In this document: one piece after another, positions 13,521 to 61,899 of the stretch
How positions within the stretch are numbered: the first letter of the stretch is position 1
Layout: each line of letters opens with the position of its first letter
Source of the DNA: Candidatus Woesearchaeota archaeon
GTDB lineage: Archaea; Nanobdellota; Nanobdellia; Pacearchaeales; GW2011-AR1
Assembly: GCA_964639615.1 (NCBI GenBank)
Contig: CAZXHH010000002.1
Location: 8,290-72,289 of the forward strand
Direction: 5' to 3'
DNA length: 64,000 bases
The notes under the pieces: model-generated
The model's input: only the letters and a program-made list of their open reading frames with translations
Told to the model about the DNA's origin: nothing
Database searches by the model: none
Made by a program: the position numbers and the translations under genes

Positions 13521-15173
13521 ATGAACACTCTTAAACTATTACCTATATTAATATTAAGCATGTTTTTAATTAGCACTGCAAGTGCTGTAGCTGTTTATGG
13601 TGATTGGCAAGGTTCAACTCAAGATGCAACAATCACAGATGGACAAAACATAATGTTTAATACAGATTTTATCTCTGTAAATCCACCTATAACACTTAGT
13701 ATTAAATTATATGATTCTTCATCAAATTTAATTTATTCTTTTGAAAACTCAAAAGTTGTAAATAATTACAGTTTCTTCAATTCATACGAACTTACTGATG
13801 CAATTTATAAAAATCCAGGAAACTATGAAATAGTATTAACTGCTTCAGACAAATATTATTCTGACTCACACACATTAAACTTAAAGGTAAATGATGTTGT
13901 AACAGTAGATACAACTGCTCCTGTAATAACACTTGTTGGAGCAAGTACAATAAATTTAACTTTAGGAACAGCATACACAGAACTTGGAGTAACTGCTACA
14001 GACAATGTTGATGGAGATGTAACAGGAAAAATAGTTATTACAAATCCAGTTAATGTTTTTGCTGTAGGAACTTACACTGTAAGATACAATGTAAAAGATA
14101 GTGCTGGAAATTCTGCTACAGAAGTTACAAGAACAGTTAATGTTTTAGCTGCTGGAACAGATACAACTGCACCAGTTATAACAATTATAGGTGCAAATCC
14201 AATGACTCTTACTTTAGGAACAGCTTATATTGAAGATGGAGCAACTGCTACAGATAATGTTGATGGAGATATAACAGGTCAGATAACAATTACAAATTCT
14301 GTAAATATTTATGCTATAGGAACTTATACTGTTTTATATTCTGTTACAGATAAAGCAGGAAATAAAGGAAATGCTACAAGAATAGTTAATGTTGTTGCTG
14401 GAAACACTACAACTGATACAACTGCTCCTGTAATAACACTTTTAGGAACTAATCCAATAAGTATTGCTCTTGGAAGCACATATGTTGATGCTGGAGCTAC
14501 AGCATTTGATAATTTTGATGGAGATATAACAAGCAAAATTATAGTTGTAAACACTGTAGATACAAGCGCTGTTGGAACTTATGTTATAACTTATAATGTT
14601 AAAGATAATGCAGGAAACAGTGCAACTGAAGTTACAAGAACTGTTGGAGTATACAATCCAACTGATACAACTGCTCCTGTAATTCAAGTAATTTCTCCTA
14701 TTTCAAATAAAAAATACACTACTACTAATTTAGTATTTGAAGTGTTAGTTGATGAAATTGCAGAAGTTCAATTTAGCTTAGATGGAGGAAATAAAACTTC
14801 AATGGACTTTGTTGGAATGTCTGGAACAAAATTAAAATTCACATATAATGCTACACTTACTAAGAGTGCACACACAATAGTATTTTATGCAACAGATACT
14901 GCTGGAAACAATGCAACTAAAACAGTAAGTTTCTCAATGGATACATCAAAATCAACTAGCGGAACTAAGACAAGTTCTAAAGTTATTACAAATAATGACG
15001 ATGAAACTGAATATTTAAAACAATTTGAGAAAAAACAAGTTATCTACTTAGAACAAGATGAAAATACTTCAACAGAAAAAACTAGCGGGCAAAAACTATT
15101 AAACTGGTTAATAGGAATATTAATTGTAATAGTTGTTCTTTTAATTCTTGCTCTTATAAGCTTAAGAAGATAA
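13521..15173 (+). CDS. Surface protein with four tandem Ig-like (DUF5011-type) domains and a C-terminal TM anchor
   Basis: Signal peptide, then four ~80 aa repeats of the form TTAPVITL.G...LTLGTAY.E.GATATDNVDGDITG.I.ITN.V....GTYTV.Y.V.D.AGN.AT..TR.VNV. C-terminal helix GILIVIVVLLILALISL followed by RR. Confidence 0.6.
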   Translation: MNTLKLLPILILSMFLISTASAVAVYGDWQGSTQDATITDGQNIMFNTDFISVNPPITLSIKLYDSSSNLIYSFENSKVVNNYSFFNSYELTDAIYKNPGNYEIVLTASDKYYSDSHTLNLKVNDVVTVDTTAPVITLVGASTINLTLGTAYTELGVTATDNVDGDVTGKIVITNPVNVFAVGTYTVRYNVKDSAGNSATEVTRTVNVLAAGTDTTAPVITIIGANPMTLTLGTAYIEDGATATDNVDGDITGQITITNSVNIYAIGTYTVLYSVTDKAGNKGNATRIVNVVAGNTTTDTTAPVITLLGTNPISIALGSTYVDAGATAFDNFDGDITSKIIVVNTVDTSAVGTYVITYNVKDNAGNSATEVTRTVGVYNPTDTTAPVIQVISPISNKKYTTTNLVFEVLVDEIAEVQFSLDGGNKTSMDFVGMSGTKLKFTYNATLTKSAHTIVFYATDTAGNNATKTVSFSMDTSKSTSGTKTSSKVITNNDDETEYLKQFEKKQVIYLEQDENTSTEKTSGQKLLNWLIGILIVIVVLLILALISLRR

Positions 15174-21425: not shown

Positions 21426-23312
21426 ATGCCAGAAAAAAGTTATACAGCTGAAGATATTAAAGTATTGGAAGGCTTAGAAGGAGTCAGAAAAAGGCCTGCA
21501 ATGTATATTGGTTCTACAGGTAAAGATGGTTTACACCATCTAGTTTATGAGGTAGTAGACAACTCCGTTGATGAAGCTCTAGGAGGATTTTGTTCAAAAA
21601 TAACAGTCACACTAAATAAAGACGGTTCAGTTACAGTGGATGATGATGGAAGAGGTATTCCAGTAGACATTCATCCCCAATTAAAAATTCCTGCTGTTCA
21701 AGTTGCACTTACAAAATTGCATGCAGGGGGAAAATTTGATAAAAAATCTTATCAGATTTCTGGAGGTTTACACGGAGTAGGTGTTTCTTGTGTAAATGCT
21801 CTATCAAAAAAATTTATTGTTGAAGTAAAAAGAGATGGAAAAATACACCAGCAAGAATATTCGAGAGGGGATCCTCAAACAAAATTAAAAGTAATCGGAA
21901 ATTCTGAAAAGACTGGAACAAAAATTACATTCTGGCCAGATGAACAAATATTCTCAACAACAACTTTTGATTTCAAAGTTCTTGAAACAAGATTTAGGGA
22001 AATAACTTTCTTAAATGCAGGATTAAAAATTGAATTAATAGATAATATGAAGGAAACAAGTCAGGAATTTTTCTCTTCAGGAGGATTAATTGAGTTCGTA
22101 AAATGGATAAACAAATCAAAAGAGGTTCTACACAAACCAATTTACTTCAAAAGAGAGATGGAAAATGGGGCAATTGAAATTTCAATTCAGTATAATTCAA
22201 GCTATCAAGATAATATTTTTGGTTTTGTAAATACAATTAACACTGTTGAAGGTGGAACTCATATCTCTGGTTTCAAGACAGCACTAACAAGAGTAATTAA
22301 TGATTATGCAAAGAAAAAAGAATTGTTAAAAAACGATACTTTTTCTGGAGACGATGTAAGAGAAGGTTTAACAGCAATAGTAAGTGTAAAACTTGCAGAA
22401 CCCCAATTTGAAGGACAAACTAAAACAAAATTAGGTAATTCTGAAATTAAAGGATTTGTTGATTCAATTGTAACCTCTGCACTAACAGAATATTTTGAAG
22501 AAAATCCTCAGATAGCAAAAAAAATTGCTGAAAAATCTTTAGAAGCTGCTAAAGCTAGACTTGCTGCAAAAAAAGCTAAAGAATTAGTAAGAAGAAAAAA
22601 TGCATTCTCACTTGGAGGATTACCTGGAAAACTTGCAGATTGCTCTGATAAAAAATCAGAAGATACAGAATTATATTTAGTAGAAGGGGAATCAGCTGGA
22701 GGCAGTGCAAAAATGGCAAGAAACAAAGAAATGCAAGCTATTCTTCCTCTTAGAGGTAAAATCCTTAATGTTGAAAAAGCAAATCCATCAAAAGCTCTTT
22801 CAAGTGAAGAAATTACAAATATGATTACAGTTATAGGAACTGGAGTTGGAGAACAATTTGATTCTGAAAAAATAAGATATGGAAAAATAGTAATGATGAC
22901 TGATGCTGATGTAGATGGAGAACACATCAAAACTCTTTTATTGACTTTCTTTTTCAGATTTATGCCACAGCTAATAGAAAAAGGACACATTTATGCTGCT
23001 ATGCCTCCATTATATAGAATAAGAAAAGGCCAAAAAGATATTTATGTTTACAGTGATGAAGAATTAAAAAAAACTACTGCTGAATTAGGGGTTACTGAAG
23101 GGGGAGTTACACGTTTCAAAGGTTTAGGAGAGATGAATTCTACTCAGCTATGGGAAACTACTATGAATCCTAAAACAAGAAAGATTAAGAGAATATTTAT
23201 TGAAGATGCAATTGAAGCAGACAGAATGTTTGCAATGTTAATGGGAGACGATGTCCAAGCAAGAAAAGATTTTATTCAAGAAAATGCAAAGGAAGCTAAT
23301 TTAGATGTTTAA
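21426..23312 (+). CDS. gyrB: DNA gyrase subunit B
   Basis: GHKL ATPase motifs (HHLVYEVVDNSVDEA, GLHGVGVS), the Toprim motif EGESAGGSAK and the C-terminal gyrB tail. Confidence 0.95.
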   Translation: MPEKSYTAEDIKVLEGLEGVRKRPAMYIGSTGKDGLHHLVYEVVDNSVDEALGGFCSKITVTLNKDGSVTVDDDGRGIPVDIHPQLKIPAVQVALTKLHAGGKFDKKSYQISGGLHGVGVSCVNALSKKFIVEVKRDGKIHQQEYSRGDPQTKLKVIGNSEKTGTKITFWPDEQIFSTTTFDFKVLETRFREITFLNAGLKIELIDNMKETSQEFFSSGGLIEFVKWINKSKEVLHKPIYFKREMENGAIEISIQYNSSYQDNIFGFVNTINTVEGGTHISGFKTALTRVINDYAKKKELLKNDTFSGDDVREGLTAIVSVKLAEPQFEGQTKTKLGNSEIKGFVDSIVTSALTEYFEENPQIAKKIAEKSLEAAKARLAAKKAKELVRRKNAFSLGGLPGKLADCSDKKSEDTELYLVEGESAGGSAKMARNKEMQAILPLRGKILNVEKANPSKALSSEEITNMITVIGTGVGEQFDSEKIRYGKIVMMTDADVDGEHIKTLLLTFFFRFMPQLIEKGHIYAAMPPLYRIRKGQKDIYVYSDEELKKTTAELGVTEGGVTRFKGLGEMNSTQLWETTMNPKTRKIKRIFIEDAIEADRMFAMLMGDDVQARKDFIQENAKEANLDV

Positions 23313-23898
23313 AATGTTACCAGAAAGTTTTTTTGAAAAATTGAAAGAGAAAGTAAAAAAAGAAGTTGGAGAAAAAGGAAGTCATGACATGGGTCATATT
23401 GAAAGAGTTTACAAATTATCAATTTTAATTTCTAAAGATTTAAACGTAGATATGGATGTGATAAGAGCAGCTGCACTTTTCCATGACATTGCAAAACATA
23501 AAGAAAAGAAAAAAAAGAAGGATCATGCAATGATGGGTGCAAAAGAAGCACTAAAAATTTTGAAAAGAACTGAATTCCCAAAAGAAAAACTAAAGATAGT
23601 AGAAAAATGCATTTTACTTCATAATAAATCTGAAGACATTCCAGAATTAAAAGAAGTTAGAGTATTAAAAGAAGCAGACGGATTAGAATCTATGGGAGCA
23701 ATAGGCATTGCAAGACATTTTGCATATAATGGGGATGAAGAAGATTGGAATAATTCAAACGTGTTAAATGAACTAACAAGAAACTTAAACTTAAATTACT
23801 TTAAGTTACCTATAGCAAAAGAATATGCACAAAGAAGAATTGCAATTACACAATCTTTTTGCACTGAATTTAAGAAGGAGTTTAATTTAACAATATAA
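23305..23898 (+). CDS. HD-domain phosphohydrolase
   Basis: H...HD motif (GHIERV..., AALFHDIAKH). Overlaps the gyrB stop by 8 nt. Confidence 0.7.
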   Translation: MFKMLPESFFEKLKEKVKKEVGEKGSHDMGHIERVYKLSILISKDLNVDMDVIRAAALFHDIAKHKEKKKKKDHAMMGAKEALKILKRTEFPKEKLKIVEKCILLHNKSEDIPELKEVRVLKEADGLESMGAIGIARHFAYNGDEEDWNNSNVLNELTRNLNLNYFKLPIAKEYAQRRIAITQSFCTEFKKEFNLTI

Positions 23899-23899
23899 A

Positions 23900-24223
23900 A
23901 TGGCAAAAAAAGGAAAATTATCAACACCAGAATGGATTTTAGAAGGTTATGATAGCCCAGCAGAATATGCAAAAGCACATGGTGAAAAAGCTCCAGCTGA
24001 AAAAGAAAAAGGAAAAACATTCAAAATAAAGATATGTCCAAAATGTGGAAGTTACGATGTTGCAATTAAATTAAGCAATATGGACTTTGAAGAAGAAAGC
24101 AATACAGGAAAGCAGTGGGAATGTAAAAAATGCAAATGGGTTGGAGAAACTGTAAAAGAAAAGGCACTTAGTGAAGATGATTTCATGAAATATTTAGATG
24201 AAAAAGGGGAGGAAGTTGCATAA
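23900..24223 (+). CDS. Cys4 zinc-ribbon protein (107 aa)
   Basis: CPKCGSY...CKKCKW. Starts 2 nt after the HD gene's stop. Confidence 0.5.
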   Translation: MAKKGKLSTPEWILEGYDSPAEYAKAHGEKAPAEKEKGKTFKIKICPKCGSYDVAIKLSNMDFEEESNTGKQWECKKCKWVGETVKEKALSEDDFMKYLDEKGEEVA

Positions 24224-24528
24224 TGCCAAAAGCACCAATAGAATTTGAATATGTAGATGATGATTCTGATGATGAAGAATTAGAGGAAGATGAAAACGAA
24301 GAATCAGATGTAGAAGTAGAAACAACTTCAGAAGAATACGAACAAATTGAATTTTCTATATCAGATGAAGAAATTGATGAATGGATAAATGAGTTAAAGA
24401 AATTAAAAAGAGAAAAAGAGCCTGTTCACTTACATGTTGGAGAAGATTTAGTATTAAAAATAGATTATTTTGACGAAGATGAAGAATCTGATGATGAGGA
24501 AGAAGACGAAGAGGAGGATGAAGATTAA
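24223..24528 (+). CDS. Extremely acidic protein (101 aa, about half D/E)
   Basis: Its start overlaps the previous stop (ATAATG). It ends 1 nt before the gyrA ATG. Contains long D/E runs. Confidence 0.5.
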   Translation: MPKAPIEFEYVDDDSDDEELEEDENEESDVEVETTSEEYEQIEFSISDEEIDEWINELKKLKREKEPVHLHVGEDLVLKIDYFDEDEESDDEEEDEEEDED

Positions 24529-26967
24529 ATGACACCAAATATTGACCCAAAAGTTGAAGAAGATTTGAAAAAAGGAATTATCCCAACAGAAGTTTCTGAA
24601 GAAATGAAAAAATCTTATCTTGATTATGCAATGAGTGTTATTGTTTCAAGAGCTATTCCTGCAATTGAAGATGGTATGAAACCAGTTCAAAGAAGAATTT
24701 TGTATTCGATGCATCAAATGGGATTAAAACCAAATACTCCTACAAAAAAATCAGCAAGAATTGTCGGAGATGTTATTGGTAAATACCACCCTCACGGAGA
24801 TGTTGCAGTTTATGATGCAATGGTAAGAATGGCTCAAGATTTCTCTTTAAGATATCCTTTAGTTTATGGTCAGGGTAACTTTGGTTCAATAGATGGAGAC
24901 CCTCCAGCTGCTTACAGATATACAGAAGCTAAGCTAATGCCAATTACTCAAGAGTTAATTGAAGATTTAGAAAAAGAAACAGTTGACTTTGTTCCTAATT
25001 TTGATAATTCATTAAAAGAACCTGAATTACTTCCAGGAAAACTTCCTGCATTAATGTTAAACGGTGCATCGGGTATAGCTGTAGGTATGGCAACAAATAT
25101 TCCCCCACATAATCTTGTAGAAGTATGTGATGCAATTAATGCTTATATAAAAAATCCAGAAATAACATTCGAACAAATAGTTGAAATAATTACTGGCCCA
25201 GATTTTCCAACTGGGGGAAGTGTTCAAGGAGACATGCTTGAATTGTATAAAACTGGAAGAGGAAGATTGGTAATGAGAGGTAAAACCTCTACTGAAACAG
25301 TAAAGAACAGAGAAGCTGTTGTTATAACTGAAATTCCATATATGTTAAATAAATCTATGTTAGTTGAACAGATTGCACAATTAGTTTCTGAAAAGAAGAT
25401 AAAAGATGTTTCCGATTTAAGAGATGAATCTTCTAAAGGAAAAACAAGAATTGTTCTTGAATTAAAAAAAGAAGGAGATCCTAAATTCATAATCAATTCA
25501 TTATACAAATACACAAGACTTCAGGATTCTTTCAATGTTAATTTTTTAGCTCTAGAAAATGGAAGTCCTAAAGTAATGAATATCAAAGAAGTTCTTGATG
25601 CTTATGTAAGATACAGAAAAACAATTATTACAAAGAGAACTAAATTTGAATTAAAGAAAGCAAAAGAAAGACAAGAAATTGTTGAAGGATTATTAATTGC
25701 ATTGAAAGACATTGACGGAGTTATTAATTTAATTAAAAAATCAAAGACTGCTGCTGAAGCTTCAGAAGCATTGATGAATAAGTACAAATTATCAAAAAAA
25801 CAGACTCAAGCAATTCTAGAAACTAAATTACAGCAATTAACTTCACTAGAAGTTGAAAAATTAAAGAATGAAGCAATTGAATTAAAAGAAAAAATAAAGG
25901 AACTTGAGATAATTCTTGGAGATATTAAAGAAGTTCTTAAGATAATTACAAAAGAAGTAAACGAAATAAAGAAGGAATATGGTGATGAAAGAAAAACTCA
26001 AATATTAAAGAGCATTAAAGAAATTAAAGAAAAGGACTTGATACAGGAAAAAGATGTAGTAATTACAATAACTGATAAAGGTTATTGTAAAAGAATGGAT
26101 GTTCAGGCTTACAAAGAACAAAATAGAGGGGGAAGAGGAGTAATTGGAAGTGATTTGGCTACAGGAGACTTTGTAAATCAATTAATAACTTGCTCAACAC
26201 ACGATTATCTAATGTTCTTCACAAGCAGAGGAAGAGTTTTATGGCTTAAAGCATACGACATTCCTGTTGCAGAAAGATACAGTAAAGGAAAAGCATTAAT
26301 CAATTTACTTGGATTAAAAGATGAAAAGATAACAAATGTAATTTCAGTTAAGAATTTTGAAGATGGATTATTCATGGCAACAAAGAAAGGAGTTGTCAAG
26401 AAAACGCCTTTAAGCAACTTCTCTAATCCAAGAGCATCTGGAATAAGAGCACTTAATTTACCAAATGATAATTCGGACTTCTTAATTGGAGTTGAAGTAG
26501 TAAAGAAAGGACAAGAAGTTCTTTTGGCTACAAAGCACGGTAAAGCAATTAGATTCAATTCAGATGATGTAAGAGATATGGGAAGATCAAGTTATGGTGT
26601 TACAGGGATGAAATTAGATGCAGGAGATGAAGTTGTAAGCCTTGAAATTTTAGATACTCCAGCAATTTTAACAATAACTGAAAAAGGATACGGTAAAAGA
26701 ACTGAAGTTCAGGATTACAGAAAAACAGCAAGAGCAGGTAAAGGAGTAATTAATGTAAAGATAGGAGATAAAACAGGAAATGTTGTTACAACTGTTTCAG
26801 TTAATGATAAGGACAATATAATTATTACAACAGCTAAGGGAATGGTAATAAGAACTTCTCTTGAAAGTATTAGAGTAATGGGACGTTCAGCACAGGGAGT
26901 TAGAATTGTAAAGCTCCATGAAGGAGATTACGTAACAGATTTAGTAAGAGTAGTTGAAGAGATTTAA
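24529..26967 (+). CDS. gyrA: DNA gyrase subunit A
   Basis: Context around the catalytic Tyr ([10 protein letters not shown]), the GyrA box-like region and C-terminal beta-pinwheel repeats. 812 aa. Confidence 0.95.
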
Positions 26968-26994: not shown

Positions 26995-28908
26995 TTAGAT
27001 ATCTATTTTTTCATCTTCTAACTTTTTTAAAATGTACTTATGAAGACCTTCTTTTTTCACAGCACCAACATCAATAAGATGTTTTAATCCAAATTTCCAA
27101 CCTTCATTTTTTATTTTTAATTCTCTTACTTTATTCTTGTGTACAGCCCACTCCAAGTCAATTAAATTCCACATTTCATTATTTAATTTATTGCCATCTA
27201 TATGATGTATTTCATTTTTCTTTGGGGTATCTGGAAATTTTTCTAAGTATAATTTTCTATGATAAGCTTTATCAGAATTATTCCAAACAATATAACCATC
27301 ATTATTTATATGTGCTCTTCCTTCTCCACAATAATTTTTTATTGCTAACTCCTCATTTCTTTTTTGTTCTCTTTCAATCTCATCATTTATTTGCTTTAAA
27401 GAATCTGCTTCATCTTTTCTCTTTTTTAATTCTTCAATTTCTATATTCTTTTCTATGATTAATCTATGAAATTTATCTTCATCAATCAAAAAAGCATTCT
27501 CTAAATCTCTTATTCTATCTTGATATTCATCCTTCCTCTTTTCTATTTCTTTATTAATCCTAATCTCTGCTTCTTTATTTGCTTTCTTTTTTTTGTCTTC
27601 TAACTTTTTAATTTCAAGATTTTCTTTTTCTTTCAATTTTTCTAAGTGTATATCAAACTCTTTTTGTTTATCAGAAAAATTCTTTTTTAAACGTTCTTTC
27701 ATCTTCTTTAAATTATTAATTTCTTCTGAGTTTTCTTTTATCTCATTGTTCAAGCTTTCCTTCTCTTTTTTTGCTTCATCCCTCTTTTTTTCTTCACCTT
27801 TCCTTTCTTCAATTGTTGTCCACAACTTATACTTTCCAAAATATAATAGACTAATTAAAAAAATAATAAAAACAAAAACCCAAAAGTAAGTCATTTGTTT
27901 AATACTTGGTTTACAAACTCCCTCTTTTCCTCTCCCAGTCTTACACTCTTGAATACAAAAATATTCTTGCCCTGCTTTCTTCGAAGAAACATTTCTACAT
28001 ATTCCTTCACAAGGCATTGTTCCATTAACGCACTCCCAATTACAAGAATAAGGTTGCCCATCATTTTTAATTGAAGGAAGTAAACAAGAATTATTGCATA
28101 TTTGTTCTCCATTTAAACAACTACCATTCCAATCTCCACAAATTCGTGCAGGATTACAATCTCCAAAAGCACAATCATCATCTATTGAGCAAGGCAAACC
28201 ATTTTTTAGAGCACATACCCCGAAAACATTTTTATAACCAGTACTACATTCTTCAATCCTACATATAGGAGTCTCTCCTAAATTTTTTGAATTTACAATA
28301 ACGCACCTAGTATTATCTGGACATTGAAGTTCATTTTGAGGACAATTACAATTATTCTTATAGCATTTATCTGTTTTTGAACAATTACCTCTTACACAGT
28401 GTTCTCCCCCACATTGCAATGAATCATTACAAGCTTCACCATCATTTAGACAAGTATAATTTCCACATATCTTACAAGTATAATTGTCAATACTAGTCAA
28501 TTCTTTTTTAGCTTCCAAAAATGGAGGGCTATTGACAACAAAATAAATGCTTGATGAATCTAGTCCAGGAGTTGAAGTATCTGAAACAGTACAATATCCA
28601 TTTGGAGAGATAATCGGACAATCAAAAGAATGAAGTGCCCCATAAAATAAATATTTTACAGTTACATTAATATCTAAAGTATATCTGTTGTATACTTTGA
28701 AAGACATAGGATTTGAACTAAAAAAACCAGTACTCCCTTGAATAATATCTCTAATTTCTAAAGCATCATAATCTAGTTTTGAATTATTTTCATAAAAAAG
28801 ATTTCTATATTCTTCATATTGATTATTATCTTTATACTGACAATCCAAAGAATATACCGAATTACATAAAATTATAGAAAAGAATAAAAGAAATGCCCAT
28901 TTCTTCAT
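26995..28908 (-). CDS. Single-pass membrane protein: signal peptide, Cys-rich glycosylated ectodomain, TM, long cytoplasmic coiled coil, C-terminal HNH nuclease domain
   Basis: Signal peptide MKKWAFLLFFSIILCNSVYS. About 60 Cys residues in CxC/CxxC arrays with many N-x-S/T sequons. TM helix YFWVFVFIIFLISLLYF followed by a basic stretch. ~170 aa K/E heptad region. C-terminal motif EIHHIDGNKLNNEMWNLIDLEWAVH (HNH). Confidence 0.6.
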   Translation of the reverse strand: MKKWAFLLFFSIILCNSVYSLDCQYKDNNQYEEYRNLFYENNSKLDYDALEIRDIIQGSTGFFSSNPMSFKVYNRYTLDINVTVKYLFYGALHSFDCPIISPNGYCTVSDTSTPGLDSSSIYFVVNSPPFLEAKKELTSIDNYTCKICGNYTCLNDGEACNDSLQCGGEHCVRGNCSKTDKCYKNNCNCPQNELQCPDNTRCVIVNSKNLGETPICRIEECSTGYKNVFGVCALKNGLPCSIDDDCAFGDCNPARICGDWNGSCLNGEQICNNSCLLPSIKNDGQPYSCNWECVNGTMPCEGICRNVSSKKAGQEYFCIQECKTGRGKEGVCKPSIKQMTYFWVFVFIIFLISLLYFGKYKLWTTIEERKGEEKKRDEAKKEKESLNNEIKENSEEINNLKKMKERLKKNFSDKQKEFDIHLEKLKEKENLEIKKLEDKKKKANKEAEIRINKEIEKRKDEYQDRIRDLENAFLIDEDKFHRLIIEKNIEIEELKKRKDEADSLKQINDEIEREQKRNEELAIKNYCGEGRAHINNDGYIVWNNSDKAYHRKLYLEKFPDTPKKNEIHHIDGNKLNNEMWNLIDLEWAVHKNKVRELKIKNEGWKFGLKHLIDVGAVKKEGLHKYILKKLEDEKIDI

Positions 28909-28946
28909 AAAATTTAATGATATTAAAGCCTTTAAATTTAACTATC

Positions 28947-29213
28947 TCACAAATTTCTCGATTTCATATACGCCTTGAAAGCTTCCTTATTCTCTTTATC
29001 TTTTTCATCAATATCTTTCTTAACATGTTTATACTTGGATTTCAAAGTTTTATATCTTGTATATTGAGCTAATGAACCAAGATAATCTCTTTTCTTATTA
29101 ACATATCCGTAAACTTTTTGTCCTTGTATATCAAAAGGGGCATTCCCTTCAAATGTTTCTGCTAATTTTTCAAGTTCTCCAAGTTCTACATTTTTTTCAG
29201 ACGTATTTCGCAT
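28947..29213 (-). CDS. Hypothetical protein (88 aa) immediately upstream of the HNH-membrane gene
   Basis: ORF 38 nt upstream on the same strand. Confidence 0.4.
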   Translation of the reverse strand: MRNTSEKNVELGELEKLAETFEGNAPFDIQGQKVYGYVNKKRDYLGSLAQYTRYKTLKSKYKHVKKDIDEKDKENKEAFKAYMKSRNL

Positions 29214-31390: not shown

Positions 31391-32923
31391 TCAGTAACCA
31401 TACTCCATATATCTCTGATGTTGCCTAAACTTCCATATTCCAAATCCTATTCCTCCTAGAAGAATAATTCCGCCAAGAATATACAATCCAGTGTTTTTCT
31501 TTTTCTCTTTTATCTTAATATTAGGTTTAGAAGAATTCGTTGTTGAATTTACAGTAGAGCTTGCTTTAATAGCATCTCTTACTGCTTGAGGAATTTCTTC
31601 ATTTATTTCCTTAAAAACCATTCTTGAACTATTGGTATAAGTTATATTTACTAAAGAAACTTGTAAATCATAAAAAGCATCATTATTCGCATTTATCTTT
31701 AATGTATAATTATTCCAAACAGAATAATTAGTATTATTGAAAGAGAAAGTAACATTCATAAGATTTCTATTTATTTCTTTTATCTGGACAATATAAGTTA
31801 TATTTGACAGATTTAATCTAATTATATCGCTTTTTCTAAAATATCCTTCAAATCCAACCTGCAATTGAGAAGTAGTTGGTTTGAATATCATTACTTCGTC
31901 TACATTCTCTTCGTCAGACGAACTCACACTATCTTCTTCAGCTTCTGAAGTTTTTAAAGTATAAATTGGTGTTGAATTCTTATTTCCAAAATTATCTGTA
32001 AAATACCATCTATATCCAATTATTTTATCAACATCTGAACTTAATATTTTTGTAACAATTATTGTTGCAGGGGTTGAAGTAAAGCTAACTGCACTATTAT
32101 TTGCCCAGCTTCCAGAATTATTTGTTGAAAAAATGTATTGCCCAGATGGATTTAATGCCAAATTATCATTTACTGTTATAGAAAACTTAGTGATTTGCCC
32201 AGCATCTGTATTATTAACACTCTTTGAAGAATAATTTGGTGAAACTAAATCTGCTGTAGTATTTAATGTATAAATTGAAGTAAAGTTTAAGTTTCCTGCA
32301 CTATCATTAAAATACCATCTGTAACCAACAAAAGTTCCAACAGTTGAATTTAATGTTTTTGTAACATCTGCCCAACTAGGGGTTGATGTGAAATTAACTG
32401 CACTATCATTAATCCAAGTTCCTGTGTTGTTTGTTGAAAAAATGTATTGTCCATTTGGATTCAATGCAAAATTATCATTTATGTATATTGAAAAACGAGT
32501 TAATTGCCCAGCATAACTATTATTTGAAGAATTTAAACTGGCTGTTGGGAAAGTTGTATCTGCTGTAGTAAAAAAACTGTAAATTGGGGTTGAGTTTGTT
32601 ATTGAAGAATTATCACTAGAATACCATCTAAAACCAATTAATATTCCTGGATTAGAATTTAAAATTTTTACACTAGTTATTGTTTGGGGAGTTGAAGTAA
32701 AATTAACTGCACTATCATTAATCCAAGTTCCTGTGTTGTTTGTTGAAAAAATGTATTGCCCTAATTGCTCCAAGGAAGAACTATCAGAAACTACAACACT
32801 AAACAAAGCAGGTTGTCTAGCAATAGTAACATTCACTTCAGTTGAATCAAAAGTTGGTTCAGCAACTAAAAAACCCAACAAAAATATTGTTAAAAAAATA
32901 ATAAACATCCATCTTTTTCTCAT
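31391..32923 (-). CDS. Surface (S-layer-like) glycoprotein with three ~103 aa tandem repeats and a C-terminal TM anchor
   Basis: Signal peptide. Three copies of GQYIFSTNN(T/S)G(T/S)W(I/A)N(D/N)SAV(N/S)FTSTP. Dense N-x-S/T sequons. C-terminal helix LYILGGIILLGGIGFGIW. Confidence 0.6.
   Translation of the reverse strand: MRKRWMFIIFLTIFLLGFLVAEPTFDSTEVNVTIARQPALFSVVVSDSSSLEQLGQYIFSTNNTGTWINDSAVNFTSTPQTITSVKILNSNPGILIGFRWYSSDNSSITNSTPIYSFFTTADTTFPTASLNSSNNSYAGQLTRFSIYINDNFALNPNGQYIFSTNNTGTWINDSAVNFTSTPSWADVTKTLNSTVGTFVGYRWYFNDSAGNLNFTSIYTLNTTADLVSPNYSSKSVNNTDAGQITKFSITVNDNLALNPSGQYIFSTNNSGSWANNSAVSFTSTPATIIVTKILSSDVDKIIGYRWYFTDNFGNKNSTPIYTLKTSEAEEDSVSSSDEENVDEVMIFKPTTSQLQVGFEGYFRKSDIIRLNLSNITYIVQIKEINRNLMNVTFSFNNTNYSVWNNYTLKINANNDAFYDLQVSLVNITYTNSSRMVFKEINEEIPQAVRDAIKASSTVNSTTNSSKPNIKIKEKKKNTGLYILGGIILLGGIGFGIWKFRQHQRYMEYGY
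32391..32449. repeat. 59-nt exact direct repeat, copy 1 (copy 2 at 32700-32758; diverged third copy near 32074-32143), period ~309 nt
   Basis: The identical string aaattaactgcactatcattaatccaagttcctgtgttgtttgttgaaaaaatgtattg occurs at both positions inside the surface-protein gene. Confidence 0.85.
32700..32758. repeat. 59-nt exact direct repeat, copy 2
   Basis: See copy 1 at 32391-32449. Confidence 0.85.
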
Positions 32924-32963: not shown

Positions 32964-34676
32964 TTATCCTTTCTCTGTTCTTGGGTGTTCGTGCCCTTTT
33001 CTTGCTGCCTCTTTAAGCATTTTAATATGATTTTCTTTTTCAACTTCATAGCCTTTAGCATTTGTCTTCAAATCACTTACCATTTTGGAAACATACTCGC
33101 CTCCCAAGAAATGAGGGGTTACAACATAATCTGCACCTTTTTTGTATAAATCAAGAGCATCATCAATTAACTGTGCTCTAACTATTATTATTGCTTCCTT
33201 GTTAATTTTCCTTATTGCATTAAGCAAAATAACATTAGTATCATATTCGGGAACTGTTGAAATTATTATTTTTGCTTTATCTAGTGGAAGTTCATTTAAG
33301 AAATCAATATCATCAACATCTCCGTATAAAGAAGGTACTCCAAGTTTATTCAATCCAGCTATTGTTTCTGGATTAAAATCAACAACAAGATATTTTTTAT
33401 TTGAATGTTTTAATGAATTTAAAATACTAAATCCAATTCTATTATATCCGAATAAAATTGCATAATATTCTTTGTTCAACTTTATTTCTTTATTCTTAAC
33501 ATCTTTTCTTTCAAACAACCCCGCAAACTTCCTCATTTTATCATAGAATTTTTCAGAATAAATTACCATATAAGTAGAAAAGAAAATAGTGATTATCATT
33601 GTTAAAATTAATGTGTGCAATACCTGACTTCCAACATGACCTAATGAAACTGCCATGAACAAGACAATTAATGAAAATTCTGATATTTGCGCAAGACTTG
33701 TCCCAACAAGGAAATTTGTTCTCTTAGTATAACCAAAGAATCCAGAAAGTGCCATTAAAATTACTGGCTTTAAGATAAGTACAACTGCTGACAAAATAAC
33801 TGCATTTAATAAAACACTTGGGATTGCAGAAAGCTCAACATTAAATCCTAAAATTATGAAGAAAATGATTATGAAAAAATCCCTTAATGGACTAATTCTT
33901 GAACTGATTTCTGCACTATAAGGAGTTAAAGAAAGAACAACTCCTGCTACTAATGCTCCAATCTCAATTGAAAATCCTAAAATACTAAAAAGAGCTGCAA
34001 TAACAAAACACCAGCATATTGAAAATAAGAAAAGTAATTCCTGAGATTTTGCAAGATTCTTAGTAAAAAATTGCAGTACAAAATAACCAATTAAAAAAAG
34101 CGCAATTATAATTCCAAATCCAAGCAATAAATTAGTTGTTGCAAATGTTGATGAAACTGGTTCAATTGAATTTGAAGAAATGAACATTAAAACTCCTGCT
34201 GCAACCAAATTCTGGAAAATCAAAACACCTATAGATATTTTTGCATAAAGTGATTCTAAATCTTCTTTATCAGAAAATAATTTCATGATTAAAATTGTAC
34301 TTGAAAATGAAAGTGCAAGTCCAATATAAACAGATTCAATTGTTGAAAAACCTAAAAAGCTATTTGCTATTAAGAAAGAAACTGCAAATGTTAATATAAT
34401 CTGGAAAAATCCTATAAAAAATGAAGATGCTCCTATTTCTTTAAGTGTTTTTGGATTTAGGCGTAAACCTACCATAAACAAAAGGAAAGCTATTCCAAAC
34501 TTAGATAAAACAGTTATAACATCTGTAGAAATACCAAATTTTATAATAAAAGGACTAATTAAAATACCTGCAATAATATATCCAATTAAAATTGGCTGCT
34601 TGAATAAGCTTACAATATAAGAAACTATGAAAGCTATAAGCAAAATAATTGCAAGTTCTATAAATATCTGCTCCAT
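32964..34676 (-). CDS. CPA2-family cation/H+ antiporter with C-terminal TrkA-N (RCK) domain
   Basis: About 12 TM helices, then a Rossmann-type RCK domain (ILFGYNRIGFSI...VVDFNPE). Paralogous to the gene at 38254. Confidence 0.8.
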   Translation of the reverse strand: MEQIFIELAIILLIAFIVSYIVSLFKQPILIGYIIAGILISPFIIKFGISTDVITVLSKFGIAFLLFMVGLRLNPKTLKEIGASSFFIGFFQIILTFAVSFLIANSFLGFSTIESVYIGLALSFSSTILIMKLFSDKEDLESLYAKISIGVLIFQNLVAAGVLMFISSNSIEPVSSTFATTNLLLGFGIIIALFLIGYFVLQFFTKNLAKSQELLFLFSICWCFVIAALFSILGFSIEIGALVAGVVLSLTPYSAEISSRISPLRDFFIIIFFIILGFNVELSAIPSVLLNAVILSAVVLILKPVILMALSGFFGYTKRTNFLVGTSLAQISEFSLIVLFMAVSLGHVGSQVLHTLILTMIITIFFSTYMVIYSEKFYDKMRKFAGLFERKDVKNKEIKLNKEYYAILFGYNRIGFSILNSLKHSNKKYLVVDFNPETIAGLNKLGVPSLYGDVDDIDFLNELPLDKAKIIISTVPEYDTNVILLNAIRKINKEAIIIVRAQLIDDALDLYKKGADYVVTPHFLGGEYVSKMVSDLKTNAKGYEVEKENHIKMLKEAARKGHEHPRTEKG

Positions 34677-38253: not shown

Positions 38254-39945
38254 ATGGTTCAAGAGGTGTTAATATCAATCAGCATTGTAATTGCTGTTGC
38301 TGCATTTCTAACTATTTTAGGCAGGATGGTTAAACAACCTCCTATAATTTCTTATTTAATTGCCGGAATTCTTGTTGGACCTTTATTTCTAAATGTTCTC
38401 TCTCAAGAATCAATTAGCATGGTGCAAACATTTGCCCATATTGGGGTTGCATTCTTATTGTTTATTGTAGGACTAAATTTGGATGTTAGAGTTCTAAAAG
38501 AAATAGGAGGAGTTTCAACTTTTGCAGGTATTTCGGAGATTCTGTTAGCAGGAGGAATAGGTGCATTAATTGCTATAGCAATGGGCTTCTCAAACACTAC
38601 TGCATTATACATTGGAGCTGCACTTGCATTTTCTTCAACTGTAGTTGTTGTTAAAATTCTATCTGATAAAAAAGAAATCGATACTTTACATGGGAGAATA
38701 GCATTAGGGATACTAATAGTGGAAGACTTTGTTGCTGCAATTGCATTAATGATAATTCCTTTGGTTCAGGAATCAAAAGGAATCTGGCCAATATTAAGTG
38801 AATTTTTAATTGGCATTGGTTTAATCTTCCTAGTTTTCTTAATTTCTGCTTTACTATTTAATAAACTTATGAATTATCTTGCAAGAAGTCAGGAAGTTCT
38901 GTTCTTGTTTGGAATTGCCTGGGCTTTAATTCTGGCTTCAGTTTTTGATATGTTAGGATTTTCACTTGAAATAGGTGCTTTAATTGCAGGTATGTCTTTA
39001 GCTTCTTCTAAATATTCTCTTGATTTAGGAGGAAAAATTAAACCTCTTAGAGATTTCTTTGTTGTTCTTTTCTTTGTTTTCTTTGGAAGTCAACTTGCTG
39101 GAACAATAGATGGTAAATTAATTTTGCATGCTGTTTTATTTTCTCTATTTATTGTAATTGGAAAACCAATTATTGTAATGACTGTTTTAAGAATAAGAGG
39201 CTACAAAAAGAGAACAAATTTCCTTGCAGGTGCAACAATAGCACAAATAAGTGAATTCTCTTTAATCATTATATTACTTGGCTTCACACTAGGACAGTTA
39301 AGTCAGGAAGTTATGAGCCTTATTATTCTAGTTGCTTTAATGACAATAGGATTAAGCAGTTATAGCATTTATTATTCACATTGGATTTTCAATAAACTAT
39401 CAAATATCCTAGAAATATTCGAAGGAAAAATGCACAAGAAAGAAGAAAAAAGAGAGCACAATTATGATGTTCTTTTATTAGGCTATCATAGAATTGGATA
39501 CAAAATAATGAAAGCCCTTGAAAAATCTGGAAATAGTTTTGCAATTGTAGATTATAATCCTAAAGTAATATTAAATTTAGGAAAGGAAAAAATAAACTGC
39601 ATTTATGGGGATGTTGCAGAAAAAGAATTGCTTAGGGAATTAAACCTTCATAAAGTAAAAATAATAATCTCTACAATTCCAGATGCAAGTGTAAATTATG
39701 CTGTAACAAGTTATCTAAAAGAAATCAAATCAAATGCAATATTCTTGGCAACAACAGAGCATTCTAAAGAAGCATTGGAACTTTACGACCAAGGCGTAGA
39801 CTTTGTAATTGTGCCCCAGCATCTTGGAGGAAACTATGTTGCAGACATGATTCAAAAATACGGTTTAGATAAAAAATCTTATCAGAAAGAAGGACAAACA
39901 CATCTTAGAGAAATCAAAGAAAGTAAAAAAGACGTGTATAAATAA
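38254..39945 (+). CDS. CPA2-family cation/H+ antiporter with C-terminal TrkA-N (RCK) domain
   Basis: Polytopic membrane domain plus LLLGYHRIGYKI...IVDYNP. Paralogous to the gene at 32964. Confidence 0.8.
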   Translation: MVQEVLISISIVIAVAAFLTILGRMVKQPPIISYLIAGILVGPLFLNVLSQESISMVQTFAHIGVAFLLFIVGLNLDVRVLKEIGGVSTFAGISEILLAGGIGALIAIAMGFSNTTALYIGAALAFSSTVVVVKILSDKKEIDTLHGRIALGILIVEDFVAAIALMIIPLVQESKGIWPILSEFLIGIGLIFLVFLISALLFNKLMNYLARSQEVLFLFGIAWALILASVFDMLGFSLEIGALIAGMSLASSKYSLDLGGKIKPLRDFFVVLFFVFFGSQLAGTIDGKLILHAVLFSLFIVIGKPIIVMTVLRIRGYKKRTNFLAGATIAQISEFSLIIILLGFTLGQLSQEVMSLIILVALMTIGLSSYSIYYSHWIFNKLSNILEIFEGKMHKKEEKREHNYDVLLLGYHRIGYKIMKALEKSGNSFAIVDYNPKVILNLGKEKINCIYGDVAEKELLRELNLHKVKIIISTIPDASVNYAVTSYLKEIKSNAIFLATTEHSKEALELYDQGVDFVIVPQHLGGNYVADMIQKYGLDKKSYQKEGQTHLREIKESKKDVYK

Positions 39946-59723: not shown

Positions 59724-59882
59724 TCCCTCCACCAAGAATCGAACTTGGGATCTCTCGGGTTCTGCTTTAATCAGATTCCTTAAGGAATGGCTTATCACGT
59801 TTCATCCTGTCCATATAGAATGGAATGTCCACGCTAGATAATTTTCTACAGCCAAGCGCTCTAGCCACTGAGCTATGGAGGG
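59724..59882 (-). tRNA. tRNA-Tyr (anticodon GTA) containing an ~86 nt intron at the canonical 37/38 position
   Basis: Exon 1 is CCCTCCATAGCTCAGTGGCTAGAGCGCTTGGCTGTAG. Exon 2 is ACCCGAGAGATCCCAAGTTCGATTCTTGGTGGAGGGA. The anticodon stem CTTGG/CCGAG forms only after the intron is removed. T-loop TTCGATT. Confidence 0.7.
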
Positions 59883-59940: not shown

Positions 59941-61899
59941 CTAATCTGCCTTCCAAGAAGCATACAAAGGTCCAATAATCTCCTTGCCTGAGTCTGTTAT
60001 GCTTACAGGATAAATCTCTATTTTAAGCAATTTTCCTTCAAGCTTTCCTGTCAAATCAAAATTATAATTGACTGTTACAAGCTGATTATTCAGTCTGTCT
60101 ACTCTTTCAATATAAGAAGAAGTAGAATTTGAAAATTTAATCATGATGTGATTAACATTAGTAATTGCTGTTGAAGAACTTGTAATAGCATTTACAACCT
60201 GCTGATAAATTTCAATTAAAGAGCTTATATTTATAGCAGAATAATAATTTCCTTCTCCACATATAGAAATATTTTTCAAAGCTTCTTCATTTACAAGTTC
60301 TCCTGCTCCAATAGCATGAACAACTAAATCCCCTAAAAGAGTTACAGCATCGCAAGCAGATTGAGTTGCATCTGTAATTGCATCGCCTGTATTTTGTTCT
60401 GGACACTCCTGCCCAGCTTCTCCATCACTCATCACAATAATCTTTTTTGATTTCTCTTCACTCGATTGCAAATCTAATTTATCTGCAGCCTCATTTATTC
60501 CGCAACAAATACAAGTTCCAGTATAGGGTTGCCAAGCATCAATTGTTTGATTTAACAATGCTCCATTGTTTGTTAAGTCTACACTTTCGGAATCTAAAAA
60601 GCTAGTGCTATATGCAACTAAACCTACCCTATTTTGATTTGATGCACTTAGAAGAGAGACTGCCATCTGTTTGTTTGCTTCTTTTGTAGGAGTTAACATA
60701 TCTACCCAACTTGCATTCTTATAAAAAACAACAGGTGTAGAATAGCCTGCTGTTGAAAGTCCAGAGATAATTGTAGAATTTGCATTCCATCTATTTTGAG
60801 AAACACTCCAGACATATCCATTAAATGCAGAACTTAATTCTCCTGAAATCATATATAAGGAAGAATCTTTGTAAAAAACATAAGGAGTTGACCTATCTCC
60901 AATATCTACTAAATTACTTACAATAGTTGAATTAACAATCCAATTTGTCCCATTCCAAATAAATCCATTAAATGTTCCAGCACTATTTCCTGAAATTAAA
61001 TATAAATTTGCACCTTTGTAAAATACTGTTGGTGCAGAATTGCTTCCTATATCAGGTAAAGAAGCATTAACTGTGAAATTAATTTCCCAATGATCAAGAT
61101 TCCAGCTAAATCCATTAAATGTTCCTGCACTATTTCCTGAGATCAAATATAAATTTGCACCTTTGTAAAATATAGCAGGTGTAGAATAATCTCCTACATC
61201 TGGAAGAGAAGCATTTATTATTGAATCAGGGACCCAATTTAAAAAATCCCAAATATATCCATTAAAATTACCTGTAGACTCTCCAGACAATAAATATAAA
61301 GAATTATTCTTATAAAAAACAGCAGGTGCTGAATTAGAACCAATATCTGCTAGGTTAGTTGTTATTCCCGAATTTGAAGCCCAAGTAGTATCAAAACTAA
61401 ATCCATTAAACAAACCACTACTTCTTCCTCTTATTAAATACCAGCTTCCAGAACATCCTGGAGCAGAAAGACAATTTGTTCCTTGATCAGTATCTGCACC
61501 ATAACCTATTCTATTATCAGAATTATAACTTGTTCCATGAATTATATTTGTACGACAACTACTCGATACACCAATACACTGAGTCATGCTACCAGATAAA
61601 TCTACAACAGAATAAACATCTGTTGGAACAACTTCAGTTATGATAGTAATATTTTTCTTTTGTGTTACATTAACTTTCTCGCCTTCAATTTTTATTAGAG
61701 AGATATTAACCAAAGGCTCATTAATTCTAACAGACATTTCGACTCTCTCATTAAAAAATTCTTTTCTCAAAGCAACTCCTTCAGATTGACTGATTATTAA
61801 ATTTTTAACAACAACCCAAATTATCATGATTGCAATGAAAGTTAACATTATAATTAGAAGAGTTGCTATTATTGACGACATTCCCCTCTTTTTTATCAT
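59941..61899 (-). CDS. Pilin-like (class III signal peptide) adhesin with ~49 aa tandem repeats and a C-terminal vWA domain
   Basis: N-terminus MIKKRGMSSIIATLLIIMLTFIAIMIIWVVV (basic residues, then Gly, then a hydrophobic stretch). At least five repeats of (S/A)(T/A)P.VFYK...LY.ISG.S.G.FNG. vWA motifs VGLVAYST and IIVMSDGEA. Confidence 0.6.
   Translation of the reverse strand: MIKKRGMSSIIATLLIIMLTFIAIMIIWVVVKNLIISQSEGVALRKEFFNERVEMSVRINEPLVNISLIKIEGEKVNVTQKKNITIITEVVPTDVYSVVDLSGSMTQCIGVSSSCRTNIIHGTSYNSDNRIGYGADTDQGTNCLSAPGCSGSWYLIRGRSSGLFNGFSFDTTWASNSGITTNLADIGSNSAPAVFYKNNSLYLLSGESTGNFNGYIWDFLNWVPDSIINASLPDVGDYSTPAIFYKGANLYLISGNSAGTFNGFSWNLDHWEINFTVNASLPDIGSNSAPTVFYKGANLYLISGNSAGTFNGFIWNGTNWIVNSTIVSNLVDIGDRSTPYVFYKDSSLYMISGELSSAFNGYVWSVSQNRWNANSTIISGLSTAGYSTPVVFYKNASWVDMLTPTKEANKQMAVSLLSASNQNRVGLVAYSTSFLDSESVDLTNNGALLNQTIDAWQPYTGTCICCGINEAADKLDLQSSEEKSKKIIVMSDGEAGQECPEQNTGDAITDATQSACDAVTLLGDLVVHAIGAGELVNEEALKNISICGEGNYYSAINISSLIEIYQQVVNAITSSSTAITNVNHIMIKFSNSTSSYIERVDRLNNQLVTVNYNFDLTGKLEGKLLKIEIYPVSITDSGKEIIGPLYASWKAD
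60965..61025. repeat. ~60 nt near-identical direct repeat, copy 1 (copy 2 at 61111-61172), period ~147 nt
   Basis: ccattaaatgttcc(a/t)gcactatttcctga(a/g)at(t/c)aaatataaatttgcacctttgtaaaata occurs twice within the adhesin gene. Confidence 0.8.

Follow-up and report, generated by a model that had tools for sequence, protein, structure and literature searches.

SPEARE proteins of Nanohaloarchaeota have adhesion domains on the outside of the cell and a restriction-enzyme domain within it, and degradation of DNA entering the symbiont has been proposed, as a hypothesis only, as their role (PMC6642349). In the Zorya systems of bacteria, ZorAB is accompanied by ZorC/D or by the HNH protein ZorE, and the effector of Zorya II is an HNH nickase (PMC11946911, PMC11890865). 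The gene described here lies in a stretch of 64,000 nucleotides from a Candidatus Woesearchaeota archaeon (assembly GCA_964639615.1, contig CAZXHH010000002.1, positions 8,290 to 72,289 of the forward strand), which was analysed as a whole and is referred to below as the window. It occupies 26995..28908 on the minus strand and encodes a protein of 637 residues, predicted from sequence and structure models to be a type I single-pass membrane protein with a nuclease domain inside the cell. DPANN surface proteins with an intracellular nuclease are known already, and the family of the 637-residue protein appears to be a further variant of them. A preliminary description of the locus had called nucleases wired to an extracellular sensor rare; this needs qualifying, because the SPEARE proteins already join adhesion outside the cell to a restriction-enzyme domain inside it (PMC6642349).

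The likeness to the SPEARE proteins extends to the DPANN origin, to a mostly extracytoplasmic chain and, beyond a transmembrane (TM) helix placed toward the C-terminus, to a nuclease in the cytoplasm (the topology being read here from the sequence), and in both cases the nuclease domain is conserved and the ectodomain variable. SPEARE proteins, however, comprise 650–8,500 residues and carry laminin-G, serine-protease and toxin-like domains together with an intracellular type III restriction-enzyme domain, whereas members of the present family, likened to them by description, comprise 400–700 residues with a β-sandwich and a Cys-rich stalk, a long helical tether and an HNH domain. Membership among the SPEARE proteins was rejected, as HNH_3 was the only Pfam match and ResIII, laminin-G and protease domains were absent. 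We infer that the 637-residue protein may be a small analogue of the SPEARE proteins, much reduced in size and easier to work with than those giant proteins, for which the same idea has been put forward.

The likeness to Zorya is one of concept, in that a sensor embedded in the envelope would signal through an extended helical tail in the cytoplasm, and a nuclease would attack invading DNA locally. Zorya is a multi-protein bacterial system with a 5:2 MotAB-like proton motor and a peptidoglycan-binding domain, whereas the present protein has a single TM helix, carries the nuclease on the same chain and belongs to an archaeon without peptidoglycan. Membership in Zorya was rejected on the single TM helix and on the lack of any PADLOC match of the window protein to ZorA, ZorB or ZorE; a ZorB match in one homologue (E=0.016) falls on the TM and coiled-coil region and was likewise discarded. 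The C-terminal HNH-like nucleases of teneurins and polymorphic toxins are extracellular, are delivered to another cell and have a downstream immunity gene. Such an identity was rejected for the present protein, in which the HNH domain is predicted to lie on the cytoplasmic side of the TM helix and which has no conserved downstream gene.

Architecture of the protein

The coding sequence is complete (637 codons and a TAA stop at 26995–26997) and, according to the list of open reading frames (ORFs), is a single uninterrupted reading frame without frameshift that aligns over its entire length with full-length homologues; an identical 637-residue protein was found by database search on a 162-kb NCBI contig. 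All coordinates of its parts given below refer to the minus strand. A Kyte–Doolittle window exceeded 1.6 at two places only, namely at the N-terminus and at residues ~339–361, in agreement with the signal-like segment and the single internal TM helix claimed previously. The N-terminal hydrophobic segment (residues 5–23) corresponds to a predicted signal peptide (residues 1–20, MKKWAFLLFFSIILCNSVYS; 28849..28908). Almost every homologue has a motif LDCQY or ACQY immediately behind the hydrophobic segment, and cleavage presumably takes place before LDCQY, the predicted mature N-terminus. The TM helix (MTYFWVFVFIIFLISLLYFGKYK; 27826..27894) is the only one in the protein, and one such helix is present in every full-length homologue.

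Between these two segments lies the predicted ectodomain, which in the structure model (pLDDT, the predicted local distance difference test score, 82.9) consists of a confident all-β domain, the membrane-distal β-sandwich (residues 21–145; 28474..28848), followed by small disulfide-type modules that form a Cys-rich stalk (residues 146–335; 27904..28473; pLDDT 62–89), delimited by its Cys and sequon positions. The protein contains 34 Cys residues, of which an even number, 32, fall within residues 21–335, and 28 of these 32 belong to the stalk. The figure of about 60 Cys given in the preliminary description was therefore too high, and its CxC/CxxC/EGF-like spacings come down to one CxC and one CxxC, the usual spacing being 4–7 residues; a Pfam scan gave no match of the ectodomain to EGF or any other Cys-rich family. 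The many N-glycosylation sequons, by contrast, were borne out: the ectodomain holds ten N-x-S/T sequons against 4.1±1.8 in composition-preserving shuffles (P=0.002), seven of them in the stalk and another, N142, just N-terminal to it. Across the family the number of Cys-rich modules differs (10–42 Cys per homologue), with a median of 18 Cys outside and none inside. The β-sandwich tip is the least conserved part (mean pairwise identity 22.8%, compared with 34.7% for the HNH core). On the model, a stalk of variable length would present a variable tip, a layout that resembles that of an adhesin or receptor.

The 275 residues predicted to be cytoplasmic contain one Cys and two sequons. On account of the signal peptide, the TM helix and this asymmetry of Cys and sequons, the HNH domain is placed in the cytoplasm of the producing cell, in line with the orientation proposed earlier. 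The cytoplasmic part begins with an E/K-rich α-helical tether (residues ~365–530; 27319..27816), recognised by composition and heptad analysis: it contains 21% E and 20.5% K (42% E+K), no Pro and three Gly, and hydrophobic residues are enriched at heptad positions a and d (z=3.8 against shuffles), so that the charged heptad segment of about 170 residues described previously holds. Either a coiled coil or an ER/K single helix would fit these data, as would a combination of the two. Within the family the tether spans 12 to 277 residues (median 116); that of the 637-residue protein would reach up to ~25 nm when fully extended. PADLOC matches of the tether to SMC, JetC and LmuB were rejected as spurious coiled-coil noise.

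The nuclease domain and its family

The HNH core (residues ~532–595; 27124..27315) carries the motif I-H568-H569-I-D571...N576...N581-L582...H590. Pfam HNH_3 (PF13392) matched residues 548–582 with E=3.4e-6 (27 bits, cut-off 24.8) and the isolated domain with 29 bits, and it matched all 15 aligned family C-termini (best E 9.6e-14), one of which is a stand-alone protein of 127 residues. An AlphaFold2 model of the C-terminal part, built from the alignment of these 15 sequences, reached a mean pLDDT of 92.7. In it, two N-terminal strands are followed by a helix, a strand (565–569) ending in H568-H569, a loop with N576 and N581, a further strand (582–586) and a helix (587–593) bearing H590, and this arrangement forms the β-β-α-metal finger expected of an HNH_3 or I-HmuI-like domain. 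By profile, modelled fold and active-site letters, the domain is thus a member of HNH_3, and the earlier assignment of a C-terminal HNH domain was confirmed.

Structural comparison with Foldseek ranked I-HmuI, Cap5, ScoMcrA and I-PpoI at the top, none of them significantly, and I-HmuI (PDB 1u3e) was the sole sequence match of the family profile in the PDB (E 0.088); matches of the full-length protein to PDB sequences were confined to the NavAb channel and were set aside as spurious TM and coiled-coil hits. The two proteins share the β-β-α-metal core with N-terminal β strands, although I-HmuI is a soluble, free-standing homing nickase of a phage with a C-terminal helix–turn–helix domain, whereas the domain described here belongs to a membrane protein and makes up its cytoplasmic end. 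I-HmuI nicks DNA site-specifically. Its active-site letters D-H...N...N differ from H-H...N...H in the present protein; from the alignment we take H569 to be the general base and H568 and H590 to stand at the places of the Asp and Asn metal ligands. The C-terminal extension (residues 596–637; 26998..27123), which contains a W-x-x-G-x-x-x-L motif, is helical (596–602, 604–613 and 624–632 in the model) and differs from that of I-HmuI. It is present in about two thirds of the family members and absent from a short-tailed third.

A first database search returned seven relatives, the full-length ones all with the same order of parts; 27 loci were added by scanning genome and metagenome contigs, and a word-indexed search with the C-terminal profile gave a single protein of 127 residues. 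Family size was determined by an exhaustive HMMER search with the ectodomain profile against 1.84 billion cluster representatives, in which 306 proteins were found at E≤1e-3, of which 258 reached E≤1e-10, corresponding to a family of ~300 clusters at 50% identity. The family HNH domain was present in 123 of the 156 sequences inspected, and one more carries a different, classical HNH; most members without it stop at the TM helix or within the tether, a pattern that contig ends would produce. Neither Pfam nor NCBIfam holds a model of the family, its members are annotated as ‘HNH endonuclease’ at best or as ‘hypothetical protein’, and no earlier description was found in the searchable literature. 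One copy of the gene (L019:7953–9402) is apparently frameshifted or pseudogenised, in pieces of 145 and 185 residues, and is syntenic with the intact copy L014:7953–9362 of a related metagenome-assembled genome (MAG); a type I HsdR gene adjoins both.

These sequences bear on the question whether the fusion is genuine. One might consider a fusion made by mis-assembly, or the insertion of a homing-endonuclease gene into a surface-protein gene, since homing endonucleases of phages and introns typically have HNH_3 domains (PADLOC gave ‘HEase’ matches) and since LAGLIDADG genes occur near the family gene at three loci. The same domain order recurs, however, across independent assemblies, in 123 cluster representatives with 23–40% identity, always with the HNH domain at the C-terminus behind the TM helix and tether, and the window gene is one uninterrupted ORF. 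An assembly artefact is therefore excluded, as the preliminary description had required of a true fusion, and on this sequence evidence the whole explanation, including selfish insertion, is effectively refuted. Identity as a homing endonuclease was also rejected because in these representatives the domain is invariably the C-terminal part of one and the same membrane protein and because the gene is flanked by gyrA and serS, with no intron or mobile-element context.

The conservation of the active site was evaluated in the set of 124 sequences at ≤50% identity. H569, N581 and L582 are each present in 124 of 124, H590 in 121, H568 in 120, D571 in 114 and N576 in 112. Purifying selection on the active site is strong, and a catalytically dead binding module is therefore unlikely. 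This conservation weighs on the quite improbable explanation that the function is not degradative, the HNH domain anchoring chromosomal or plasmid DNA at the membrane or serving as a proteolytically released signalling output of the Notch or anti-sigma kind. A basic HNH domain (pI, the isoelectric point, 9.0; ectodomain 4.8) on a long spacer would suit such a role, as would neighbours from DNA metabolism (gyrB and gyrA here, PolB and UvrB elsewhere) and the rare non-nuclease C-termini, namely a weak DnaJ/J-domain match in P0156 (440 residues; ectodomain, TM helix and tether kept) and a helical tail in place of the HNH domain in P0125. Near-perfect conservation of the catalytic positions in divergent sequences nevertheless argues for catalysis. 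Moreover, P0136 (540 residues), which likewise retains ectodomain, TM helix and tether, ends in an HNH domain of the zinc-finger type (CxxC...HH...N...CxxCH), so that one nuclease is replaced by another nuclease family and not by a DNA binder. The replacement suggests that selection is for having a nuclease, whatever its type.

Gene neighbourhood and proposed function

The gene is placed between gyrA and serS, is convergent with gyrA and is followed by T-runs on its 3′ side. For the survey of neighbourhoods, the loci were grouped into 21 lineages and all neighbours within 5 kb were clustered. Only one broadly recurrent neighbour was obtained, a gene for a CopG-like ribbon–helix–helix (RHH) protein of ~98 residues located immediately upstream on the same strand in seven of the 21 lineages, or eight if the short contig L025 is counted (L004:4400–4696, L007:6077–6373, L015:7708–8004, L017:7279–7587, L027:188–511, L028:1713–2009 and L033:6648–6944). 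In L004, L015, L017, L020, L027, L028 and L033 it overlaps the start codon of the family gene by 4 nt. Its N-terminal 45 residues are of CopG type (PDB 1b01, E 1.3e-3; Sulfolobus ORF56, E 1.4e-3), matches to the RHH_1, CopG_antitoxin, RelB-like and aCcr1 models are weak and below threshold, and a C-terminal extension of ~50 residues is conserved. The window lacks the RHH gene, as do 12 other lineages, upstream sequence being available for all 13. All RHH-linked members possess the C-terminal extension on the HNH side, but so do most members without RHH, and the correlation is therefore uninformative.

A toxin–antitoxin (TA) or addiction module, in which the RHH protein would neutralise a membrane-parked HNH toxin and the ectodomain would be a mere anchor, is suggested by the start-codon overlap, by the matches to CopG and ORF56 and, weakly, to CopG_antitoxin and RelB-like models, and by an extension such as many antitoxins have. 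The coupled upstream RHH gene of a type II TA system is lacking in the window, however, as in the remainder of the 13 lineages; the matches all lie under the family cut-offs and would also suit an ordinary transcriptional regulator, and the conserved ectodomain of 300 residues, predicted to be glycosylated, would be left unexplained. We regard such a module as very unlikely. In about one third of the lineages the RHH protein probably regulates the gene or its nuclease.

The preliminary description had suggested a signal-gated DNase acting as a suicide or defence effector, which is conceivable from the domain composition. In its suicide (abortive-infection) form, engagement of the ectodomain by a virus would cause the HNH domain to destroy the cell's own chromosome. 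The architecture and the conserved active site would serve this equally well, and several loci have suggestive neighbours: a HaeIII restriction–modification (R-M) system beside L001, SNase, HNH_2 and a D12 methylase beside L009, type I HsdR beside L014, MazE/PIN beside L007, L008 and L033, and the overlapping antitoxin-like RHH gene in seven to eight of the 21 lineages. These defence-gene neighbours come without a baseline for island enrichment, though, no PADLOC defence model was matched save for coiled-coil noise, the neighbourhood is unconserved and often of housekeeping character (gyrA and serS here; PolB, UvrB and ProRS-like genes elsewhere), and a site-specific nickase as the closest fold relative is ill-suited to bulk genome degradation. 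Suicide is accordingly considered a doubtful explanation.

The reading that we tentatively prefer, with rather less than even confidence, is by analogy that of a nuclease held at the inner face of the membrane and coupled to a surface-binding domain, which would cut DNA at sites of contact or entry. The ectodomain would bind a ligand on the surface of a host cell or of a virus particle; binding would concentrate or dimerise the protein at the contact site by way of the helical tether; and the HNH domain would then nick or cut DNA at, or entering through, that patch of membrane. The target would be foreign DNA, and the purpose defence, nucleotide scavenging or both. A more specific proposal, for which the likelihood is low, sees in the protein a transmembrane immune or contact sensor made of one polypeptide, a single-chain counterpart of the Zorya type: a ligand on the β-sandwich tip would cluster the protein, two HNH nickase domains would make double-strand breaks where DNA enters, and RHH would act as a safety lock in some lineages.

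Several points weigh against the preferred reading of a contact-coupled nuclease. The cells are small and the chromosome also lies near the membrane, so tethering alone leaves the sparing of self-DNA unexplained, and the tether may be a single α-helix and not a dimerising coiled coil. The gene neighbourhoods are for the most part unconserved housekeeping ones; R-M, TA or nuclease neighbours were found at ~8 of the 21 lineages, a number that has no control loci as baseline; and the protein has no match to a PADLOC defence family, the PADLOC and NCBIfam hits being limited to coiled-coil noise (LmuB, JetC and SMC) and ‘HEase’, with no defence or curated family among them. Whatever goes beyond the architecture is deduction.

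The family is of moderate to high interest because it is large, has an intact active site and consists of proteins whose modest size lends itself to direct experiments. Attached to other cells and unable to synthesise nucleotides themselves, DPANN archaea have proteins that are almost entirely uncharacterised. By linking a predicted surface-binding domain to an intact nuclease active site, the family offers a small, expressible handle on how symbionts deal with DNA at the cell–cell or cell–virus interface, be it for defence, scavenging or both, and on whether a single-pass receptor can signal from the outside to a nuclease within.

Flanking features and genome context

The 88-residue ORF 5′ of the gene (28947..29213, minus strand) is basic (pI 9.4), upstream and co-oriented as first described, but the suggested link between the two did not hold: the ORF has no homologue at any of 36 related loci and is therefore not part of the feature, and it is probably unrelated to the 637-residue protein. 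ORFs of 55, 65 and 74 residues beyond it were rejected as partners, as they have no counterpart at any related locus. A possible TATA-like box, TTTAAA (28931..28936, minus strand; 23–28 nt 5′ of the ATG), is a weak candidate from reading the sequence, and in DNA of 28% G+C it carries no statistical weight. On the 3′ side no downstream gene is conserved among the 21 lineages. A PD-(D/E)XK nuclease gene directly follows the family gene in two lineages (L013:7912–8601, L032:5375–6064 and L030:2072–2734), and in L030 it overlaps the stop codon of the family gene.

The window has a G+C content of ~30% and encodes a group II chaperonin (thermosome), aIF5B, gyrB/gyrA and SerRS. The named genome records with homologues are almost all MAGs of Woesearchaeota, Nanoarchaeota or Pacearchaeota, and two further records (Omnitrophica and Methanosarcinales) are probably mis-binned. 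Because of the gene content of the window and the nature of the homologue-bearing MAGs, the gene is placed on the chromosome of a DPANN archaeon. At 21426–26967 (plus strand), gyrB and gyrA are parted by three small co-oriented genes that abut or overlap by a few bases and encode an HD-domain protein (197 residues), a zinc-ribbon protein (107 residues) and a very acidic protein of 101 residues with long D/E runs.

Further predicted surface proteins were found in the window. A 510-residue protein (31391–32923, minus strand) has a signal peptide, a C-terminal TM anchor, very dense N-x-S/T sequons and three internal repeats of ~100 residues (QYIFSTNN(T/S)G(T/S)W(I/A)N(D/N)SAV(N/S)FTSTP...); it gave no Pfam match and, judged by these features, is probably a glycosylated surface protein. 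Two others, at 13521–15173 (plus strand) and 59941–61899 (minus strand), comprise one with Ig-like/HYR/PKD domains and one with a VWA domain. Such proteins indicate a genome rich in surface proteins, as expected for an episymbiont. Two paralogous genes for a Na+/H+ exchanger with TrkA_N are no more than 5 kb apart, one on each strand (32964–34676, minus; 38254–39945, plus). A tRNA gene that spans 159 nt (59724–59882, minus strand), with an implied intron of ~88 nt, was found by Rfam and missed by ARAGORN.

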